Source: Cyanobacteria bacterium P01_A01_bin.123
GTDB lineage: Bacteria > Cyanobacteriota > Cyanobacteriia > Phormidesmidales > Phormidesmidaceae
Direction: 5' to 3'
Assembly: GCA_039815185.1 (NCBI GenBank)
Contig: JBCBZT010000004.1
Span: 32,001-96,000, forward strand
DNA: 64,000 nt
The notes under the pieces were generated by a model, which worked only from the letters and a program-made list of their open reading frames with translations, ran no database searches and was not told the origin of the DNA. Each line of letters begins with the position of its first letter. The first letter of the stretch is position 1. Below, one piece after another: positions 46,954 through 57,976 of this stretch. The position numbers and the translations under genes were made by a program.

Positions 46954-47003
46954 AGCATTCCAGCGATACTCAGTGCATTTAGCAATTTGGCCAAAGTAAT
47001 ATA
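46954..47003 (+). repeat. Right half of the 105-bp repeat (copy D)
   Basis: agcattccagcgatactcagtgcatttagcaatttggcca, between CHAT copies 1 and 2. Confidence 0.8.
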
Positions 47004-47031
47004 CGCAGCTGCGAGTTTTGGAGGTAGGGCA

Positions 47032-49881
47032 ATGATGAAGCGCTCTAGATGGCGATCGCGTTTGTTAGCCATAACCCTAGCGGTGGCAACCTGGCTATGG
47101 GTCACGGTGCCAGCCCAATCGACGCTTCCCTATTATCAGGAACATAATTTTCCATCGCAGGCGGCTTTTAGCCATGAGGCCCGCCAAACTAAGCAGCAAG
47201 ATTCAGATGGCACAGTCTTGCTTGAGGTTGAGGGCACCTTAGAAGCGGGCGATCAAAGGCTTGAAGATGGCAGTCTCTATGACATCTACCCGTTTGAAGG
47301 GGAAGCCGGGCAATCCATTACCATTCGGATGATGAGTGATGAGTTTGACACGTTTATCGGGGTGGTCAACACGGCAGGGGAATTGATTTATGAATCAGCC
47401 GCGAACTCCAACTTATCGGTATTCTTACCTGAAACGGCAACTTATCAGATCATTGCCACCATTTTTGATGACAGCGGGCAGGGGCAATACCGACTAACCG
47501 TATCAGCGGCTAGCGCCTCTGAAACGCAGCTAGCCGAAGCCAACCACCTACGTCAGCTAGGCATTCAGCAATATTTGACTAGCCAGTTTCAATCCGCACT
47601 GCAATCTTGGCAGCAAGCGATCGCGATTTATCGTTCTAGCGACATTCGCGAAGCATTTCCAGAGGCAAGCCGCCAAGGTGAAGCCGCCGCCTTGGGCAAC
47701 TTAGGACTCGTTTATCATGCCTCCGGTCAATATCAACAGGCCATTGACTTTTACCAGCAATCTTTAGCAATCGCTCGCGAAATCCGCGATCGCCAGGGTG
47801 AAGCCAATGCGCTGGGCAACTTGGGCAGTACCTACAGTAGCCTAGGCCAATATCAACGAGCGACTGACCTACACCAGCAATCCTTAGCGATTAAACGCGA
47901 AATTGACGATCGTCGGGGCGAAGCTACCTCTCTGGGCAATTTGGGCAATATTTACCGTTCCCTAGGGCAGTATGAACAGGCAATTGCCGCTTATCAACAA
48001 GCTTTAGACATTGCTGACGAAATTAGGGATATTGACATTCAAGCTGCTGCTCTAAGCAATTTAGGTCTTGTTTATCTTGCATTAGGTGAATATCAGCAAG
48101 CGCTTGACCTACATCAACAAGCTTTAGCGATTGCCCGTAACACAGGTAATCGTCAGAGCGAAGCTTATTCTTTGGGCCATTTAGGAATTGCTTATTACGC
48201 TTTGGGTCAGGATCAGCGCGCCATTGATTTCTATCAACAACAGTTAACGATTGTTCGCGACATTGGCGATCGCCAAGGGGAAGCTAGTGTCCTCAGCTAT
48301 CTTGGCGGTGTTTACAATACTCTGGGACAATCTCAGCAGGCTATTGAGTTTCATCAGCAATCTTTGGACATTATTCGCGACATCGGCGATCGCCAAGGGG
48401 AAGCCATGGCGCTTAATAGCTTGGGGATATCGTTAATCAGCACCAATCAACCGGCTGAAGCTGAAATTGTCCTCGCGCAATCCATTGAGATCTTTGAATC
48501 CCTGCGAACTGACCTACCGGATGCCCAACTCATTGCACTCGCGGATACCCAGGCAGGCGCCTATACGCTGCTAGAACTGGCATTAACCATCCAAGACAAA
48601 ACAGCCGAAGCCCTAGAAACCACAGAACGTGCCCGCGCCCGCGCCTTCGTGCTGCAACTCGCAAGCCGCCTCTCCAACCGAGAAGAGTCAACTCCCTTAG
48701 CTGAACCTGAGGCCACCCCACCTCCCAAGATTGCCGACATTCAGCAAATCGCCCGCGACCAAAACGCCACCCTCGTCACCTATTCCCTGATTTATGATCG
48801 GGCGCTCTATATCTGGGTCGTGCAACCGTCCGGCGAGATTGAGTTTCGCTCGGTGGAATTGGGTGGGTCTGGCAGTCTTCCTAACCCAATTGCCGCCATT
48901 GATGGCCCAGTTTATCGGGGCAATTCAGACCCGTCAGAACTGGACACCCTGGTTTCAGAAACACGGGCCGGCATTGGTGTGGTTGCAAGCATCCCCTCTG
49001 AACGGCTCAAAGACCTGCATCAAGTGCTGATTGAACCGATTGCCGATTTACTGCCCAGCGATCCTGACGCCAACGTCGTTTTCATCCCCCAAGGCAGTCT
49101 CTTTTTAGTGCCTTTCCCTGCCCTGCAAGATGCCGACGACACCTACTTGATTGAAAAACATACGGTATTGACTGCGCCATCCATTCAGGTCTTTGGGTTA
49201 GCAGCTAGGGAGGAAGCCCAAGGGCGGCGTTCTGAGTTTTCTGATGCGCTCGTTGTGGGTAATCCAGTCATGCCCCAAGCTTGGGCTTTGGGTGATAACG
49301 GGCTAGAAGAACTCCAGCTTGCCCCCCTGCCCGGTGCCGAAGCGGAAGCCTTGGCAATCGGCGACTTCCTCAATGTTTCACCCCTGATTGGTGCTCAAGC
49401 CACCGAGGCCCAGATCAAACAACAATTCCCGAGTGCTCAACTCATTCACCTGGCGACCCATGGCTTACTCGAATACGGCGATCCCCAGTCCTCGGGCGTT
49501 CTGGATGTCCCCGGTGCCCTAGCCCTCACCCCTGGCGATGGCGAAGACGGCTTGCTAACTGCCGCCGAGATTCTAGAAATAGACTTGCAGGCTGAGCTAG
49601 CGGTTCTGAGTGCTTGCGACACAGGACGGGGGCGGATTACGGGAGATGGCGTGGTCGGGCTTTCACGATCGCTGATTACGGCTGGCGTGCCCAGCGTAAT
49701 TGTGTCGCTGTGGGCCGTACCCGATGCACCGACAGCTGCGTTGATGACAGAGTTTTATCGCCAGCTCCAGCAGGGGCAGAGCAAGGCTCAGGCGCTACGG
49801 CAGGCGATGTTAGCAACATTGAACGACTCCCCGGAACCGGTCAATTGGGCAGCGTTTACATTAATGGGAGCAATCGAATAG
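47032..49881 (+). CDS. PPC-TPR-CHAT protein, copy 2
   Basis: Same architecture as copy 1. The ATG at 47032 follows GGAGG, and the His/Cys dyad is intact. Confidence 0.92.
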   Translation: MMKRSRWRSRLLAITLAVATWLWVTVPAQSTLPYYQEHNFPSQAAFSHEARQTKQQDSDGTVLLEVEGTLEAGDQRLEDGSLYDIYPFEGEAGQSITIRMMSDEFDTFIGVVNTAGELIYESAANSNLSVFLPETATYQIIATIFDDSGQGQYRLTVSAASASETQLAEANHLRQLGIQQYLTSQFQSALQSWQQAIAIYRSSDIREAFPEASRQGEAAALGNLGLVYHASGQYQQAIDFYQQSLAIAREIRDRQGEANALGNLGSTYSSLGQYQRATDLHQQSLAIKREIDDRRGEATSLGNLGNIYRSLGQYEQAIAAYQQALDIADEIRDIDIQAAALSNLGLVYLALGEYQQALDLHQQALAIARNTGNRQSEAYSLGHLGIAYYALGQDQRAIDFYQQQLTIVRDIGDRQGEASVLSYLGGVYNTLGQSQQAIEFHQQSLDIIRDIGDRQGEAMALNSLGISLISTNQPAEAEIVLAQSIEIFESLRTDLPDAQLIALADTQAGAYTLLELALTIQDKTAEALETTERARARAFVLQLASRLSNREESTPLAEPEATPPPKIADIQQIARDQNATLVTYSLIYDRALYIWVVQPSGEIEFRSVELGGSGSLPNPIAAIDGPVYRGNSDPSELDTLVSETRAGIGVVASIPSERLKDLHQVLIEPIADLLPSDPDANVVFIPQGSLFLVPFPALQDADDTYLIEKHTVLTAPSIQVFGLAAREEAQGRRSEFSDALVVGNPVMPQAWALGDNGLEELQLAPLPGAEAEALAIGDFLNVSPLIGAQATEAQIKQQFPSAQLIHLATHGLLEYGDPQSSGVLDVPGALALTPGDGEDGLLTAAEILEIDLQAELAVLSACDTGRGRITGDGVVGLSRSLITAGVPSVIVSLWAVPDAPTAALMTEFYRQLQQGQSKAQALRQAMLATLNDSPEPVNWAAFTLMGAIE

Positions 49882-49916
49882 TGAGGTTACCCGGTCGATT
49901 TTTTTGAGGTGGGGCA

Positions 49917-52805
49917 ATGATGAAGCGCTCTAGATGGCGATCGCGTTTAATAGCCGTAACCCTAGCGATCGCGACATGGCTGTTAGTGACGGTGCCCGCA
50001 CAATCCACTCTCCCTTTCAATTGGGAAGACAATGTCTGGCTGCAGACAGTTGCGAATCGTCAAAATGTCCAGCAAAACAATGTCCTGCGAACAAAGCAAC
50101 AAGATTCAGGGCAGACAGTCTTGCTGAGGGTTGAAGGGGTTTTAGAAACAGGTGATCTAGCTTTCGAGGATGGCAGCCTCTACGACGTTCATCCCTTTGA
50201 AGGCGAATCAGGGCAAGCCATCACGATTCACATGATGAGTGACGAATTTGACACTTATTTAATCCTGGTCAATGCAGAAGGAGAAGCCATTGGCAGAAAT
50301 GACGATTCAACATCCTTAGAAACCAACTCAACCCTGACAATATTGCTGCCTGAAACAGGGACTTATCGCATCATTGCTAACGCGTTTGATGCCACTGGAC
50401 AAGGAAACTATCAAATAACGGTTTCAATCGCGAGTGATTTTGAGGTTCAGCAATTAGAAGCTGATCGTTTGTTCCTCCAAGGCGGTCAGCAATATCAAGT
50501 CAGCCAGTTTCAAGCTGCTTTGCAGTCTTGGCAGCAAGCCTTAGAGATTTATCAATCCATCGGCATGTCTGAAACAGCAGTTTACGCCTTAAGCGGTATA
50601 GGCAATGCCTATTTTTCCCTAGGTCAATATCAGCAAGCCAGCAGTTTTTACCATCAATCTTTAGAGATGGCTGATGATCTCGGCGATCGCCAAGCCCAAG
50701 CCACTGCTCTTGGCAACTTAGGTCTGATTTACGAAGCTTTAGGTCAATATCAGCAAGCGATTGAATCGCATCAGCAATCCTTAGCTGTCGATCGCGCCAT
50801 TAACAATCGTCGAGGAGAAGCCGTTTCCCTAGGCAACTTGGGTAATGTCTATTATTTTCTAGGTCAATATCAACGAGCCATTGAGTTTCATCAGCAATCG
50901 TTGGCTATCAATCGCAACATCAGCAATCGTCAAGGAGAAGCCGTTTCCCTAGGGAATTTAGGGCTTGCCCATGGCGCATTAGACCAGTATCAGCAGGCAA
51001 TTGACTTGCATCAGCAATCGTTGGCTATCAATCGCGATATTGGTAATCGTCAGGGAGAAAACACGACCCTCGATAATTTAGGGAGTGTCTATTATTCATT
51101 GGGTCAATATCAGCAAGCACTTGACTTGTATCAGCAAGCTTTGGACATCGCTCTCGAAATTGGCGATCGCCAAGGCGAAGGCAACCTCCTTGTCAATCTG
51201 GGTGAAATTCACAATGCCCTGGGTCAATATCAGCAAGCGCTTGACTTGTATCAGCAAGCCTTGGGTATTGCTCGCGAAATTAGCGATCGTCAAGTGGAAG
51301 CCATTGCTCTTAATAACCTCGGTTCGTTGTTCATCAGCACCAATCAATGGGCTGAAGCTGAAATCGCACTAACACAATCTATCGAAGCCTACGAATTACT
51401 GCGAACTGATTTAAGCGATACTCAACTCATCTCTATCGCCGATACCCAAGCCGCTACCTATGCCCACCTAGAAAAGGCATTAACCGCCCAAGGCAAAACA
51501 GCCGAGGCACTAGAAACCACAGAACGCGCCCGCGCTCGCGCCTTCGTGCTGCAACTTGCGAGCCGCCTCTCCAACCCGGAAGAACCAGTTGCCCCAGATG
51601 GCTCTAATCTAGATGGCTCTAACGGTGTAAATTCTGCTTCTATTGCTGAGATTCAGCAAATCGCCCGCAACCAAAACGCCACACTCGTCACCTACTCCCT
51701 GATTTTCGATGAAGCTTTGTATATCTGGGTCGTGCAACCCTCCGGCGAGGTTGAGTTTCGCTCGGTGGAATTGGGTGAGTCTGATAGTCTCCCCAACCCT
51801 ATTGCCACGATTGATGGCCCCGTTTATCGCGGTGATTCAGATGCTTCAGAACTAGACACCTTAGTTGCCGAGACGCGGGCAGGCATTGGGGTTGTGGCTA
51901 ACAGCATTCCTTCTGAACGACTCAAAGACTTGCACCAGATTTTGATTGATCCAATCGCAGATTTACTCCCGACTGATCCCAATGCAAATGTCGTTTTCGT
52001 GCCCCAAGGGAGTCTCTTCTTAGTGCCGTTTGCGGCCTTGCAAGATACTGACGGCACCTACCTGATCGAAAAACACACGGTATTAACTGCCCCGTCAATT
52101 CAGGTGTTAGGGCTAGTGTCTAGGGACGCCCCTGGCCAGAGCAGTGCAGCGTTGTTACAACAAGATAACGCCTTAGTGGTGGGGAATCCGCTCATGCCAG
52201 AGGTTGTCGTTCTGGGTGATGAGGGACTACAACCCATTCGACTTGCTCCCTTACCTGGAGCCGAAGCTGAAGCTTTAGACATTGGCAATTTCCTCAACAT
52301 TTCGCCCTTGATTGGCGATCAAGCCACCGAAGCCCAGATTAAGCAACAGCTTCCCACGGCTTCCCTAATTCACCTGGCAACTCACGGCTTGCTCGAATAT
52401 GGTGACCCCCAATCTTCCGGCGTTCTAGATTTACCGGGTGCCCTGGCCCTCACCCCTGGCGATGGCGAAGACGGATTGCTGACTGCCGCCGAGATTCTAG
52501 AAATGGACTTGCAGGCCGAGCTAGCGGTTCTAAGTGCTTGCGATACAGGGCGTGGACGAATTACGGGAGACGGTGTGGTAGGGCTGTCGCGCTCCTTAAT
52601 TACAGCTGGCGTCCCCAGCGTAATTGTGTCGCTGTGGGCGGTTCCCGATGCGCCCACAGCTGCGTTGATGACGGAATTTTATCGTCAGCTCCAGCAGGGG
52701 CGGAGCAAGGCTCAGGCGCTACGGCAGGCGATGTTAGCAACGTTGAACGATTCACCGGAACCAGTCAATTGGGCAGCGTTTACATTAATGGGAGCAATCG
52801 AGTAG
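49917..52805 (+). CDS. PPC-TPR-CHAT protein, copy 3
   Basis: Same architecture, with HLATHG and LSACDTG. Confidence 0.92.
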   Translation: MMKRSRWRSRLIAVTLAIATWLLVTVPAQSTLPFNWEDNVWLQTVANRQNVQQNNVLRTKQQDSGQTVLLRVEGVLETGDLAFEDGSLYDVHPFEGESGQAITIHMMSDEFDTYLILVNAEGEAIGRNDDSTSLETNSTLTILLPETGTYRIIANAFDATGQGNYQITVSIASDFEVQQLEADRLFLQGGQQYQVSQFQAALQSWQQALEIYQSIGMSETAVYALSGIGNAYFSLGQYQQASSFYHQSLEMADDLGDRQAQATALGNLGLIYEALGQYQQAIESHQQSLAVDRAINNRRGEAVSLGNLGNVYYFLGQYQRAIEFHQQSLAINRNISNRQGEAVSLGNLGLAHGALDQYQQAIDLHQQSLAINRDIGNRQGENTTLDNLGSVYYSLGQYQQALDLYQQALDIALEIGDRQGEGNLLVNLGEIHNALGQYQQALDLYQQALGIAREISDRQVEAIALNNLGSLFISTNQWAEAEIALTQSIEAYELLRTDLSDTQLISIADTQAATYAHLEKALTAQGKTAEALETTERARARAFVLQLASRLSNPEEPVAPDGSNLDGSNGVNSASIAEIQQIARNQNATLVTYSLIFDEALYIWVVQPSGEVEFRSVELGESDSLPNPIATIDGPVYRGDSDASELDTLVAETRAGIGVVANSIPSERLKDLHQILIDPIADLLPTDPNANVVFVPQGSLFLVPFAALQDTDGTYLIEKHTVLTAPSIQVLGLVSRDAPGQSSAALLQQDNALVVGNPLMPEVVVLGDEGLQPIRLAPLPGAEAEALDIGNFLNISPLIGDQATEAQIKQQLPTASLIHLATHGLLEYGDPQSSGVLDLPGALALTPGDGEDGLLTAAEILEMDLQAELAVLSACDTGRGRITGDGVVGLSRSLITAGVPSVIVSLWAVPDAPTAALMTEFYRQLQQGRSKAQALRQAMLATLNDSPEPVNWAAFTLMGAIE

Positions 52806-52831
52806 TCGGTCGATTTTTTTGAGACGGGGCA

Positions 52832-55468
52832 ATGATAAAGCGCTTTAGATGGCGATCGCGATTAATGGCCTTAACCTTAGCAGTGGCAATCTGGCTGTGG
52901 GTCACGGTGTCAGCTCAATCAACTTACCCTGCTTATCCAGAAGGCAATGGTCTACCACAGGTAGCTTTTAGCCATGAGACCCGTCAAACTAAGCAGCAAG
53001 ACTCGGATGGCACGGTCTTACTTGAAGTCGAAGGCACCTTAGAAACGGGCGATTTAACGCTTGAGAATGGCAGTCTCTACGATATTCATCCCTTTGAAGG
53101 TGAAGCCGGGCAGGTCATCACGATTCAGATGATCAGTGATGAGTTTGACACGTTTATCGGGTTGGTAAACCCCGCGAGACAACCCATTGGTGAAAACAAC
53201 GACACAACGGCCTCAGAGACGAACTCAACCCTGACGATAACGCTGCCTGAAGCCGGAATGTATTTGATTATTGCCATTGCCTTTAATGACGCCGGGCAAG
53301 GGAACTATCGGTTAATCGTTTCAACCGCTAACCCCGCTGAAATTCAGCGATTAGAAGCTAACCATCTGCTCGATCAAGGCAATCAATACTATCGAACCAG
53401 CCAGTTTCAAGCCGCGCTGGAATCTTGGCAGCAAGCGTTAGACCGTTATCAATCGATTGGCGAAACCTATGGCACGAGCAAAGCTCTACGCACCAGCGAA
53501 GCGATCACGCTAGACCACTTGGGTCTTGCTTACTATGCTCTGGGTCAATATCAGCAGGCGATTGAGTTCCATCAGCAAGCCTTAGCAATTGTTCGCGAAA
53601 TCGAGCTTCCTCAACTGGAAGCAAACACGCTGGACAACTTGGGACGGACTTACTATGCTCTGGAACAGTATCAGCAGTCGCTTGAATCCTATCAGCAAGT
53701 GTTGGAGATTGCTCGCGAAGTCGGCGATCGTGAGGATGAGGCCGACGCTCTGAGCAACTTAGGACTCGCCTATCATGCCCTAGGCCAATATGAACGTGCT
53801 ATTGACGTTTATCAGCAATCGCTGGCAATCGCTGGCAACATCGGCGATCGCCAAGGGGAAGCGAATGCCCTCAACAATCTTGGCGGTGTTTATGATGCTT
53901 TGGGTCAATCTCAGCGCGCGATCGCGTCTTATCAGCAGTCTCTAGACATTACCCGCGACATCAGCGATCGCAGCGGTGAAGCCAAGTCTCTGAGTAACTT
54001 AGGTCTATCGTTGATCAACACCGATCAACTCGCTGAAGCTGAAAGCGTCCTCGCGCAATCCGTTGAAATCTTTGAATCCCTGCGAACTGACTTACCTGAT
54101 GCCCAACTTATTGCACTCGCAGATACCCAAGCCGCTACCTACACACTGCTAGAACAAGTGTTGATAGCTCAAGGTAAAACCGCTGAAGCCCTGGAAACCA
54201 CAGAACGTGCTCGCGCCCGCGCCTTCGTACTGCAACTTGCGAGGCGTCTCTCAAACCGGGAAGAGCCCACTACCATAGCCGAACCCGAAGCCATAGCGCT
54301 GCCCACGATTGCCGAAATTCAGCAAACTGCCCGTGACCAAAACGCCACACTGGTGACCTATTCTCTGATTTTTGATCAAGCCTTGTATATATGGGTCGTG
54401 CAACCTTCCGGAGAGATTGAGTTTCGCTCAGTTGGGTTTGACGGGTCTGGCAGTCTCTCGAACCCGATCGCCGCCATTGATGGCCCAGTCTATCGGGGCA
54501 ACTCAAACCCCTCAGAACTCAACACCCTAATCGCAAACTCACGCAGAGGCATTGGCGTTGTCGAAGGAATTTCCACTGAACAACTCAAGGCACTGCACCA
54601 AGTGCTGATTGATCCAATTGCCGATTTGTTGCCCACCGATCCAGAAACCAATGTTGTTTTCATCCCTCAAGGCAGTTTATTCCTGATTCCCTTTGCAGCA
54701 CTGCAAAATGCGGCGGGAACTTACTTGATTGAAGCGCACACGGTGTTGACTGCGCCGTCGATTCAGGTATTGGATTTAACGAGTCAGGAAGCCCAAGGGG
54801 GGAGAAGAGAAGGGTTTTTATTGCACGATAGGGCATTGGTGGTAGGAAATCCAGTGATGCCTGAGGTGTGGCTACCGAGTGAAGATGGCTTACAAGCGTT
54901 ACAGCTTGTGCCCCTTCCTGGTGCAGAAGTCGAAGCGTTGGCGGTTGGCGATTTTTTAGACGTTGCACCATTGATTGGCGATCAAGCCACCGAAGCGCAG
55001 GTCAAACAGCAGCTTGCCAATGCTTCGCTGATTCACTTCGCGACCCATGGCTTGCTGGAATATGGCGACCCTCAAGCTTCCGGAGTGCTGGATATACCAG
55101 GCGCTCTAGCCCTGACTCCCGGCAATGGCGAAGATGGCTTACTGACGGCAGCTGAGATTCTAGAGATGGACTTGCAGGCCGAGCTAGCAGTTCTCAGCGC
55201 CTGCGATACAGGACGGGGGCGGATTACGGGAGATGGTGTGGTCGGACTGTCGCGCTCCTTAATTACAGCTGGTGTGCCCAGCGTGGTCGTATCGCTATGG
55301 GCGGTTCCCGATGCACCGACAGCGGCGTTGATGACGGAATTTTATCGTCAACTCCAACAGGGGCAAACCAAGTCTCAAGCTTTACGGCAGGCCATGTTAG
55401 TGACCCTAAAGAATTCTCCAGAACCCATCAACTGGGCAGCGTTTACGCTGATTGGCGCATCAGATTAG
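52832..55468 (+). CDS. PPC-TPR-CHAT protein, copy 4 (fewer TPRs)
   Basis: Same architecture in 878 aa, with HFATHG and LSACDTG. Confidence 0.92.
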   Translation: MIKRFRWRSRLMALTLAVAIWLWVTVSAQSTYPAYPEGNGLPQVAFSHETRQTKQQDSDGTVLLEVEGTLETGDLTLENGSLYDIHPFEGEAGQVITIQMISDEFDTFIGLVNPARQPIGENNDTTASETNSTLTITLPEAGMYLIIAIAFNDAGQGNYRLIVSTANPAEIQRLEANHLLDQGNQYYRTSQFQAALESWQQALDRYQSIGETYGTSKALRTSEAITLDHLGLAYYALGQYQQAIEFHQQALAIVREIELPQLEANTLDNLGRTYYALEQYQQSLESYQQVLEIAREVGDREDEADALSNLGLAYHALGQYERAIDVYQQSLAIAGNIGDRQGEANALNNLGGVYDALGQSQRAIASYQQSLDITRDISDRSGEAKSLSNLGLSLINTDQLAEAESVLAQSVEIFESLRTDLPDAQLIALADTQAATYTLLEQVLIAQGKTAEALETTERARARAFVLQLARRLSNREEPTTIAEPEAIALPTIAEIQQTARDQNATLVTYSLIFDQALYIWVVQPSGEIEFRSVGFDGSGSLSNPIAAIDGPVYRGNSNPSELNTLIANSRRGIGVVEGISTEQLKALHQVLIDPIADLLPTDPETNVVFIPQGSLFLIPFAALQNAAGTYLIEAHTVLTAPSIQVLDLTSQEAQGGRREGFLLHDRALVVGNPVMPEVWLPSEDGLQALQLVPLPGAEVEALAVGDFLDVAPLIGDQATEAQVKQQLANASLIHFATHGLLEYGDPQASGVLDIPGALALTPGNGEDGLLTAAEILEMDLQAELAVLSACDTGRGRITGDGVVGLSRSLITAGVPSVVVSLWAVPDAPTAALMTEFYRQLQQGQTKSQALRQAMLVTLKNSPEPINWAAFTLIGASD

Positions 55469-55601: not shown

Positions 55602-55706
55602 TATAGCAGTCGCCAGTCTGGTTAGGACACGACTGCGAGCCAGATTGCTTGTGGACTCAGCACCCCAGCGATACTCGGTGCATTAGGCAATCTGGCCAGC
55701 GCTATA
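55602..55706 (+). repeat. 105-bp dispersed structured repeat, full copy E
   Basis: TATAGC...GCTATA termini with hairpins gcagtcg/cgactgc and gccagattgc/gcaatctggc. It ends 1 bp from the psbA stop codon. Confidence 0.88.
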
Positions 55707-55707
55707 T

Positions 55708-56805
55708 TTAGCCGATAGACGGTGATCCAGGGGTTGCCACTGGCACAACATCATTAGCTGCCAAATCGAGCGGAAAGTTATGCGCATTGCGCTCGTGCAT
55801 CACTTCCATGCCTAGATTGGCTCGGTTAATCACATCTGCCCAAGTGCCAATTACACGACCCTGTGTATCCAAAATGGACTGATTGAAATTAAATCCATTC
55901 AGGTTGAATGCCATGGTGCTGATGCCCAATGCTGTAAACCAGATACCGAACACGGGCCAAGCGGCAAGGAAAAAGTGGAGTGACCGACTATTGGCCTTGA
56001 CACCCAAAACGATCTCATTGGTTCGCCCTACCAGACGACCAAAGTAGCCATGGGCCGCCATGATGTTGTAGGTTTCCTCTTCTTGACCAAACTTGTAGCC
56101 GTAGTTCTGAGACTCAGTCTCGGTGGTTTCCCGAACTAAGGTAGAGGTCACTAGGGAGCCGTGCATCGCACTAAAAAATGCACCGCCAAATACCCCCGCT
56201 ACACCCAACATGTGGAAGGGGTGCATCAAGATGTTGTGCTCAGCTTGGAACACGAACATGAAGTTGAAGGTACCCGAGATACCCAAGGGCATGCCATCAG
56301 AGAAGGAACCCTGACCCAAGGGGTAAACCAAGAACACAGCGGTAGCTGCGGAAACGGGTGCAGAGTAAGCCACACAAATCCAAGGACGCATGCCCAATCG
56401 GTAGGACAGCTCCCACTGACGACCCAGATAAGAAAAAATGCCGATGAGGAAGTGGAAGACAATGAACTGGTAAGGCCCACCGTTGTACAACCACTCATCG
56501 AGGGAAGCTGCTTCCCAGATGGGGTAGAAGTGCAGGCCAATGGCGTTGGAGGAAGGTACCACTGCACCGGAGATGATGTTGTTGCCGTACATCAAGGAAC
56601 CGGCAACGGGCTCACGGATACCGTCGATGTCAACGGGAGGAGCGGCGATGAAGGCGATGACGAAGCAGGTGGTGGCAGTCAGCAGCGTGGGGATCATCAA
56701 TACGCCAAACCAACCTACATAGAGGCGGTTTTCGGTGGAGGTGATCCAGTTACAAAACCGCTGCCACAGATTGACGCGATCGCGTCTCTGCAGAGTTGTG
56801 GTCAT
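55708..56805 (-). CDS. psbA: Photosystem II D1 protein, atypical variant with remodelled QB loop (365 aa)
   Basis: Unambiguous D1 sequence. Y161, D170, E189, H190, H198, H215, H252, H272, H332, E333, H337, D342 and A344 (standard numbering) are present. IFQYASFN is replaced by [13 protein letters not shown]. Confidence 0.97.
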
Positions 56806-56840: not shown

Positions 56841-56927
56841 TTAACTAACTAGATAGTTAAACTAACTTGTTAGTTAATTTAAAGTAGGAATTTAAATCTG
56901 TCAATGACTTTTTAACTAGTTAGTTAA
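56841..56927. promoter_or_regulatory. Three palindromic operator-like boxes (consensus AACTAACnnGTTAGTT)
   Basis: ttaactaactagatagttaa (56841-56860), aactaacttgttagtt (56860-56875) and taactagttagttaa (56913-56927), between psbA and the divergent TetR gene. Confidence 0.8.
56876..56904 (-). promoter_or_regulatory. Sigma70-type promoter of psbA
   Basis: On the minus strand: TTGACA (56904-56899), a 17-bp spacer, then TAAATT (56881-56876). Confidence 0.75.
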
Positions 56928-56994: not shown

Positions 56995-57669
56995 ATGGAG
57001 CCCGTAGTGAAGTCATCAGCCAAAGGCAAACGATCCGCGACAACTCGAACAGTCCGCAATCCAGAATCTACCAAGGCGCAAATTCTAGATGCTGCTGAGG
57101 AAGAGTTTGCCCGCTATGGGTTGGCAGGAGCCCGAACCGAGCCAATCGCCGCCAATACAGGCGTGACTAAAGCCATGATTCACTACTACTTCGGTACTAA
57201 AGAAGAGCTGTATCAGGCTGTTTTGAAGCGCCACGCAGCGTCTTTTCTAAATGCGGTTGAGCAGCTCGATCTAAATGATTTATCACCTGAAGAAGCCCTA
57301 AAGAAGATTCTGAGGCTTGCTGTCGTGCACGAAAGTACGCAGCCCTATCAAGGTAAAGTTCTGCTCCACGAAGCGATGACCAATGAGGGTAAATATTTCA
57401 AGCTCACGGGATGGGAAGTTCCACTCGGTACATTGGCAGAAGTTTTAGCAAGAGGCGTCAAGGAGGGCTGTTTTCGCACCCTCGATCCTTGGTTAACGAT
57501 GGTTCACATTATGGGGGTGATAACCTTTTACTTCAACGCAGCCAATAACCTTAAGCAACTTGCGCCCTTGAACGACTGTCAAAGTCCAGAAGCAATTGAG
57601 CAATTTGAAGAGTCTGCGATCGCGTTTATCCTAGCAGGTATACTCAAGCAGCCTTTAGTGGACGATTAG
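56995..57669 (+). CDS. TetR/AcrR family transcriptional regulator
   Basis: N-terminal HTH ILDAAEEEFARYGLAGARTEPIAANTGVTKAMIHYYFGTKEELY and a C-terminal ligand-binding domain with GVKEGCFR. Confidence 0.94.
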   Translation: MEPVVKSSAKGKRSATTRTVRNPESTKAQILDAAEEEFARYGLAGARTEPIAANTGVTKAMIHYYFGTKEELYQAVLKRHAASFLNAVEQLDLNDLSPEEALKKILRLAVVHESTQPYQGKVLLHEAMTNEGKYFKLTGWEVPLGTLAEVLARGVKEGCFRTLDPWLTMVHIMGVITFYFNAANNLKQLAPLNDCQSPEAIEQFEESAIAFILAGILKQPLVDD

Positions 57670-57721: not shown

Positions 57722-57976
57722 CTAGTCCGCTTCTGGATCAATACCGAGTTCACGCAGTCTAGCAGCCAAGACTTCAGCTCGTTGCCGTTCCTGTGCAGCC
57801 TGCTGTTGGGCTGTGGGCTGGACGAAACCTGCGGCCTCAAGAGCATCGGTGAGCGCGGCGGCAAGGGCAGGTTGCTGGATATTTTCCACAGGGTTATCGG
57901 GTAAAACATAATCTGCGGGGAGTGCCTCCCAAGTGATGGTCGGGCTTTGTTGGGTGGGGCGGACTTGCAAAACCAT
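57722..57976 (-). pseudogene. Internally deleted Uma2 (DUF820) endonuclease-family gene
   Basis: A Uma2-type N-terminus (ITWEALPADYVLPDNPVENIQQPALAAALTDAL) is fused in frame to the typical tail QERQRAEVLAARLRELGIDPE. The nuclease core is absent. Confidence 0.75.

Follow-up and report, generated by a model that had tools for sequence, protein, structure and literature searches.

The D1 subunit of photosystem II (PSII) occurs in several described forms. The closest to the protein considered here are the Group 4 D1s (Cardona et al., 2015, PMC4408414), which include the high-light forms with E130, a photoprotective form of D1 according to section 9 of the same paper. Group 2 (rogue) and Group 1 (super-rogue, ChlF) D1s are spare paralogues with an altered acceptor side, which lose Mn ligands and have other loop sequences; the same section gives alanine or glycine at position 264 of Group 2 proteins and reports that S264A/G slow QA-to-QB transfer. 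D1INT and D1FR are specialised paralogues of the water-splitting type that keep the loop length and S264 (Sheridan et al., 2020, by way of extracts of PMC12096807). Herbicide-resistant mutants carry recent single substitutions in their only or main psbA (S264G/A/T, N266T, F274V and changes at L275; extracts of PMC8398153, PMC11275581 and PMC6843678), and their resistance has been measured. S264, N266, F274 and L275 are resistance positions in weeds according to PMC11275581 (see also PMC6843678), and F211, F274 and L275 belong to the QB niche according to PMC8398153. In standard PSII, F265 contributes strongly to binding of the QB head, and the hydrogen bond at 265 is made by the backbone only (PMC4030317, in extract). 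The QB loop ranks among the most constrained segments of D1 and is expected to resist alteration (PMC12096807, in extract). A central role in binding and protonating the quinone is ascribed to S264.

Here we describe a family of D1 proteins in which this loop has been replaced. The window is a stretch of 64,000 nucleotides from contig JBCBZT010000004.1 of Cyanobacteria bacterium P01_A01_bin.123, and it contains the following gene and loop.

55708..56805, minus strand: psbA encoding a variant D1 of 365 aa (open reading frame, TIGR01151 profile and ligand alignment)
55993..56031, minus strand: 13 codons that stand in for the QB loop, residues 259-266 of standard D1 (translation, alignment to D1 chains, read contigs and conservation in the family)

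The original prediction, made from the sequence alone, was that residues 259-266 of a 365-aa D1 are replaced by 13 others, and this was borne out by translation and by alignment to D1 chains. The variant scored 750 bits against TIGR01151 in a profile search (cut-off 596). Bases 56031-55993 encode 13 residues, flanked in standard numbering by L258 and N267; solved D1 chains carry only 8 residues here and leave a 5-residue gap against the variant. The standard D1 of the same genome reads IFQYASFN at 259-266. Besides the variant, the assembly has a standard D1 on contig C124, partial psbA copies at contig ends and, on contig C95, adjoining D1FR-like, ChlF-like and psbD genes. The loop is present in read data as well: two independently assembled Logan contigs cross it with 0 differences (X1 record 4, 55899-56107; X2 record 10, 55676-56107), both coming from one study that may be the source of the window. 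The decisive point against an assembly artefact or a strain-private lesion is that the same loop family, under purifying selection, is found in 42 other species-level genomes. Just 3' of psbA, at 55602-55706, lies a repeat of about 105 nt that looks like a REP- or MITE-type element; it has many copies in the assembly (75-93% identity), and there is a spike in read depth beside psbA because it is multicopy. Elsewhere (genome G000, contig C115, 469-1209), a standard-type psbA is interrupted after residue 247. The sequence that follows is unrelated, has no second copy in the assembly and reaches the contig end, through either an insertion or a misassembly.

The family was collected with a DNA pattern for D1s that are lengthened by 1-11 codons somewhere from L258 to R269, and to which same-length or shortened loops are invisible. 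In a species-level genome collection this pattern gave 44 loci. The loop motif [VI]GR[TL]NExxLGxxA is present in 42, and the other two (L013 and L043) are false matches. Metagenomes gave 14 loci, some of them duplicates of genome matches: 10 encode the loop, 3 are not psbA, and the last is a psbA fragment of the same match length. Viral contigs gave 0 loci, and no lengthened QB loop (1-11 extra codons) other than this +5 family was found in genomes or metagenomes. A protein search with residues 246-288 returned 9 loop-bearing clusters among its top 17 matches, the other 8 being duplicated or chimeric standard D1s. At the level of 50% clusters, a search yielded fragments and no further information. 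With a loop-specific pattern, 12 of 401 sampled cyanobacterial genomes were positive, the window genome included; presence is patchy inside genera, and the carriers listed among the 401 have genomes of 5.7-9.4 Mb. Carrier record titles include Leptolyngbya, Nodosilinea, Adonisia, Anabaena, Trichormus, Pelatocladus, Chroococcidiopsis, Gloeocapsopsis, Coleofasciculus and Microcoleus, and there are cultured carriers: Leptolyngbya PCC 7375 and PCC 6406, and Gloeocapsa PCC 7428.

Across 43 variants there are 22 distinct loop sequences, in which 7 of the 13 residues are invariant (G260, R261, N263, E264, L267, G268 and A271, variant numbering). In the 39 sequences longer than 300 aa, the loop has a pS of 0.71 and a pN of 0.16, a ratio that is approximate because synonymous sites are near saturation throughout the psbA variants. 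To judge from these sequences, the replacement of the QB loop is old and under purifying selection. Two members stand apart as records. Locus L008 (6754-7278) lacks the first 191 codons and has no regulator, and is a decayed copy. The short metagenome contig L146 (1-1359) holds the variant gene alone, begins 58 nt before the start codon, close to the predicted transcription start, and looks transcript-like.

All 15 carrier genomes that were searched, and the window genome, have at least one standard-loop D1 plus one variant copy, the variants being 85-88% identical to the standard copies. The standard QB loop with S264 and F265 is invariant in 17 of 17 standard copies and replaced in 43 of 43 variants. 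Codon use in the variant is less optimised (TTT encodes 12 of its 29 Phe residues, compared with 2 of 28 in the standard copy). A quick tree built without the loop, in which several rows labelled 'FR' are D1INT or D1', interleaves variants and Group 4 rows, and the branch that they share has an SH-aLRT of 92. Variants as one clade (36 sequences) are compatible with the data (p-AU 0.47, from a set that left out atypical and short rows). The simplest reading is one origin with occasional gene conversion. We also considered general homogenisation of the backbone by gene conversion and rejected it: the AU test is compatible with one clade, and identity within a genome is clearly above identity to other genomes in only 1 of 16 genomes. 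That genome is the one with L032 and L133, whose variant and standard copies have 96-99% DNA identity from residue 12 to residue 258 and then diverge, through either recent gene conversion or assembly collapse. A further locus, L037 (6242-7339), is a loop-variant psbA with a standard-type N-terminus, an ordinary psbA upstream region and no regulator; either the assembly is chimeric here or recombination has brought the variant under a constitutive promoter.

Outside the loop, the residues for water oxidation are kept. D170, E189, Y161 and H190, on the Mn-cluster and YZ side, are invariant where covered (40/40), as are the C-terminal ligands and processing site H332, E333, H337, D342 and A344 (42/42). 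H215 (41/41) and H252, H272, E244 and F255 (43/43 each) are likewise invariant, and so are H198 and Y246 wherever covered. Thus, the retention of the Mn4CaO5 ligands, YZ/H190, the Fe ligands H215 and H272, E244/Y246 and H252 that had been read from the window copy holds across the family, and the idea of a water-splitting-type D1 with a redesigned acceptor side is supported, the ligands being invariant and the QB loop replaced. Three substitutions near the loop fared differently. L210F, V249M and Phe at 281 are present in the window copy, but they are lineage-level changes not shared by most of the family (F210 in 5/41, M249 in 4/43, F281 in 1/43).

Marker residues also agree with the earlier statement that the protein is not a rogue, a super-rogue or a microaerobic D1'. 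G80 (39/39), F158 (40/40) and T286 (41/43) prevail, and the window copy has G, F and T in place of the D1' markers A80, L158 and A286, all three of which are seen in the true D1' copies L091 and L092. The Group 2 markers (loss of Mn ligands, a G253 insertion, E244 usually changed) do not appear, and Group 1, whose marks are the loss of Mn ligands and of H252, W256 and a place in the far-red cluster, is excluded by H252 and G256 (43/43 each) and by the retained Mn ligands. D1INT proteins have an aromatic change in the same loop, W260. W126 and W260, which we take to be the D1INT markers, occur together in four paralogues here (L082, L090, L107 and L122), whereas the variants have Y126 (40/40) and G260 (43/43). 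No far-red genes were found among the neighbours of the variant psbA loci, so these loci are not part of a FaRLiP gene cluster, where D1FR genes lie, and a link to far-red acclimation was rejected since the neighbour genes are unrelated to it. Separately, two Leptolyngbya genomes (L088 and L089) have a D1 with only part of the D1' signature: A80 is there, whereas positions 158 and 286 keep F and T.

The variants thus resemble Group 4 D1s in their full ligand set and in G80, F158 and T286, and differ from them in a QB loop of 13 rather than 8 residues and in variable F211, V249, F274 and L275. By its sequence features, the family is a D1 of the water-splitting type that lacks the canonical loop of Group 4 and the markers of the other named groups. 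Of the positions outside the loop that never vary among 31 standard D1s, 60 lie within 209-281, and 9 of these differ between family members; elsewhere the figure is 7 of 205 (Fisher p 0.003, which is overstated since kin sequences are not independent). Variable positions of the QB region include F211I/A, V249I/M, F274L and L275M. E130 is found in 36 of 40 variants, and the window copy has Q130.

What replaces S264 and F265 was considered on a structural model. The AlphaFold model (79 sequences, mean pLDDT 70.8) matches PSII D1 chains with a TM score of 0.69 and extends the de helix to residue 267, with a pLDDT of about 50-58 in the loop. The helical hydrophobic moment of the loop segment is 1.53 at 100 degrees and 1.45 at 60, so that an extended de helix is suggestive only. 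If helix E sets the register, we infer that G-[VTA]-x-A would take the place of A263-S264-F265-N266. The S264 position is then V, T or A (26, 14 and 3 of 43), and the F265 position is hypervariable. Such a register would allow the backbone hydrogen bond at 265, and any residue would fit there because the bond uses the backbone and not the side chain. The original prediction that S264 and F265 are lost is therefore correct for the side chains, while the backbone bond could remain in this inferred register. By eye, the loop has a faint resemblance to D2 or to the purple-bacterial L subunit as a possible origin.

The second part of our analysis concerns the region upstream of psbA, which holds a divergent regulator and a set of operator-like sites.

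56995..57669, plus strand: divergent TetR-family regulator of 224 aa, with TetR_N and TetR_C_29 domains (open reading frame and domain search)
56876..56904, minus strand: sigma70-type psbA promoter TTGACA-17-TAAATT (promoter scan and position conserved in TetR-linked homologues)
56860..56875, unstranded: perfect operator-like palindrome directly after the -10 box (pattern scan)
56843..56858, unstranded: operator-like palindrome within the predicted 5' leader, differing from AACTAACnnGTTAGTT at 1 position (pattern scan)
56910..56925, unstranded: weak third operator-like site with 3 mismatches, 21 nt before the -35 box (read from the sequence)

The match to the sigma70 consensus is at chance level when taken alone. 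The two palindromes after the -10 box are the only perfect and the only 1-mismatch AACTAACnnGTTAGTT sites in the 8.09-Mb assembly; the window has 2 matches where 0.09 were expected. The third site lies outside the scan, whose limit was 2 mismatches, and homologues have a perfect operator-like site at its place. This divergent tetR-psbA pair, with palindromes overlapping the promoter, has the architecture of a TetR-repressed pair, and the perfect palindrome, which abuts the -10 box and covers the predicted start site, has the layout of a putative repressor site. No second strong operator for this TetR was found in the 8.09-Mb assembly, and no detoxification gene there shares the operator.

A divergent regulator is present in 36 of the 42 other loci, as a TetR in 25 (L042 included) and as an HTH-NB-ARC-WD40 protein in 11. 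Among the remaining six, L012, L019 and L024 are cut off by the contig edge. In L002 the upstream region is short and a TetR lies downstream, L008 is truncated at its 5' end, and the upstream region of L037 is of the ordinary psbA type. TTGACA and at least one AACTAACnnGTTAGTT site (at most 2 mismatches) occur in 21 of 21 scanned TetR-type promoters and in 0 of 10 of the other type, a contrast that is partly circular because the consensus was drawn from the same TetR-type promoters. As a further, independent check, related palindromes lie beside 9 of 22 other homologues of the TetR. In the 11 non-TetR promoters, a weak -35 box is immediately preceded by TAAC repeats in helical phase, spaced by 13 and then 10-11 nt in 9 of the 11. 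Their regulator, about 1,200 aa long, combines NB-ARC/NACHT with WD40 domains. Its N-terminus resembles HTH_VMAP-M9 (PF26355) in the Atlas feature search only, the HTH having no match in PDB or in the local Pfam set. The partners of 29 homologues of this regulator are heterogeneous and, judged by eye, share no signal. Thus, dedicated TetR or HTH-NB-ARC-WD40 control is a further difference from Group 4 D1s.

Apart from these regulators, no neighbours are conserved beyond close relatives across the variant psbA loci. Self-resistance beside a biosynthetic cluster was considered and rejected, as no conserved biosynthetic neighbours appeared among 102 proteins scanned, which were the nearest neighbours only, one per cluster. 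Other genes near the pair are recorded here as observations. Downstream of tetR in the window are a shortened Uma2-type gene (57722-57976, minus strand; 84 aa, where L010 has 254 aa) and a cytochrome P450 gene (58053-59462, minus strand) that is not conserved beside other family members. In five Nodosilinea-type loci (L018, L022, L028, L030 and L038) the tetR-psbA pair lies directly 3' of rbcL-rbcX-rbcS, with psbO near in four. The window also has three tandem related TPR proteins (46987-55468, plus strand; 964, 962 and 878 aa), whose C-termini we take to be CHAT-like.

The relatives of the TetR give an indication of what it may sense. A search of 401 genomes of the phylum, non-photosynthetic classes included, found 22 homologues outside the window genome. 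Nineteen face a Rieske oxygenase (11, one truncated and one with an intervening gene), an FAD oxidoreductase (4 monooxygenases and 1 other FAD enzyme), an MGT-type glycosyltransferase (2) or a DevB exporter (1), and the others face a radical SAM gene with an exporter downstream, a DUF445 gene and a variant D1. These partners were annotated by HMM for 8 representatives and by visible similarity for the rest. One recurrent arrangement is an uncharacterised pair of a divergent TetR and a Rieske oxygenase with a VanA-like C-terminus (L046-L060), accompanied in several cases by a related palindrome. When 46 TetRs were placed in a tree, the 24 that are D1-linked formed a clade (SH-aLRT 99). The TetRs of L044 and L002 lie in other branches, which suggests that the variant D1 may have been coupled more than once to regulators of this group. 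Its kin appear to handle small organic molecules. Since modifying and exporting genes are common partners of TetR regulators at large, the neighbourhood speaks for control by a ligand, but not for a PSII inhibitor or an external compound as that ligand, and the argument for a small molecule loses specificity for the same reason.

Based on these results, we propose a model for the role of the variant, to which we give somewhat better than even chances. The variant would be an accessory D1, normally repressed and induced by a small molecule, that serves as an inhibitor-tolerant replacement in PSII. A spare D1 beside its own regulator suggests a swap-in subunit that might keep photosynthesis going under natural inhibitors, and, of the three functions named in the original prediction (inhibitor resistance, altered quinone specificity or redox, slowed QB exchange), the regulatory context, which that prediction did not include, would favour inhibitor tolerance. 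In the model, TetR binds the palindromes and would repress both psbA and itself until a small lipophilic or aromatic molecule releases it. In other lineages, the HTH-NB-ARC-WD40 protein would act on the direct repeats at the promoter. The induced variant would then enter PSII through normal D1 turnover and leave water oxidation unchanged.

The next part of our model concerns the rebuilt pocket, in which the de helix would probably run on and lead into G-[VTA]-x-A where standard D1 has A263-S264-F265-N266. We propose that this pocket could still reduce plastoquinone by way of H215, H252 and the backbone NH, and that QB-site inhibitors of the S264 class would bind it poorly. The cost would be slower QA-to-QB transfer, which could explain why the gene is repressed and why E130 is prevalent. 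The loss of F265 may cripple quinone binding, and this counts against the model. So do Q130 in the window copy, the low pLDDT at the loop, the lack of conserved neighbours other than the regulators, the fact that no detoxification gene in this genome shares the operator, the heterogeneous partners of the HTH-NB-ARC-WD40 homologues, the truncated L008 and the regulator-less L037. The inducer would be a natural compound, because synonymous saturation places the origin of the family long before synthetic herbicides. Natural QB-site ligands include alkylquinolones, stigmatellin and aurachins (PMC7217009, in extract). Alkylquinolones are only an example of a natural candidate, because HHQ hits cytochrome b6f first and PSII less (PMC7217009).

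The herbicide-resistant mutants share the pocket and some of the positions with the variants. They differ in that theirs are single changes in a main gene, whereas the variants represent a loop swap in an old, spare and regulated paralogue, with resistance suggested by the altered positions. In its logic only, and with no sequence relationship, the proposed arrangement would be analogous to mecA/PBP2a under MecI, an inducible target-replacement resistance in which a spare insensitive paralogue is repressed until a ligand appears.

The strongest alternative, which we regard as possible though unlikely, is that TetR senses an endogenous lipophilic signal (a fatty acid, an oxidised lipid or a quinone breakdown product) and that the variant retunes QB affinity or redox for stress. 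The same evidence on regulation and selection applies to it, it agrees with E130 in 36 of 40 variants, and the TetR has generic neighbours in PDB and NCBIfam, among them the endogenous-metabolite regulators RutR and PsrA, all far below cut-off. However, a general stress role would be expected to be more widespread than the patchy 12 of 401 genomes, and the sister TetRs stand opposite enzymes for modification and export. Stress isoforms described so far differ at one or a few residues and have the usual loop (PMC4408414, in extract).

It is less probable, and in our view rather doubtful, that the acceptor side is rewired on a chemical cue, so that the rebuilt site takes electrons to an acceptor other than plastoquinone (another quinone, or possibly the sensed compound) or opens a new exit from QA. 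Alternative quinones have been raised for atypical D1s (PMC4408414, in extract), the distal hydrogen-bonding loop is wholly replaced, residues lining the pocket vary, and the invariant R261 and E264 (variant numbering) add charges near the stromal surface. Yet H252, F255, H215, L218, V219, L271, E244 and Y246 are invariant as in plastoquinone-using D1, and no gene for quinone biosynthesis or for an acceptor is conserved nearby.

We think it improbable that the variant is a placeholder D1 whose blocked QB site shuts PSII off under some condition, a role of the kind proposed for rogue D1. Codon use is consistent with conditional expression, and a de helix extended to residue 267, in a low-confidence model, could occlude the pocket. 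However, H252 is kept, and a blocked acceptor during water oxidation favours damaging charge recombination. The Mn ligands and A344 are invariant too, whereas Group 1 and Group 2 D1s change them (PMC4408414, in extract). Finally, a neutral relic or assembly artefact, to which one truncated copy and the patchy distribution might point, is hardly credible against 42 genomes, 22 distinct loops with 7 invariant residues, saturated synonymous change and a conserved promoter architecture.

The variants of PCC 7375, Heron Island J and PCC 7428 are present in the supplementary FASTA of Cardona et al. (2015), and the accessible text of that paper (PMC4408414) yielded no discussion of the three. The accessible part of PMC12096807 makes no mention of such a loop, the loop sequence was not found in a full-text literature search, and topic searches listed no paper on the variant. 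The reviews of Sheridan et al. (2020) and Oliver et al. (2023) may mention it. We conclude that the family is a real and apparently undescribed D1 isoform with its own regulation. As a natural family with a replaced loop, it offers a direct test of whether S264 and F265 are needed for plastoquinone reduction, and the cultured carriers make this question testable now. If an inhibitor-tolerant, chemically induced D1 is the right reading, chemical control would join light, low oxygen and far-red light as cues for D1 exchange, the TetR would be a ready biosensor, and chemical antagonism at PSII would be a selective force in mats, crusts and reefs.
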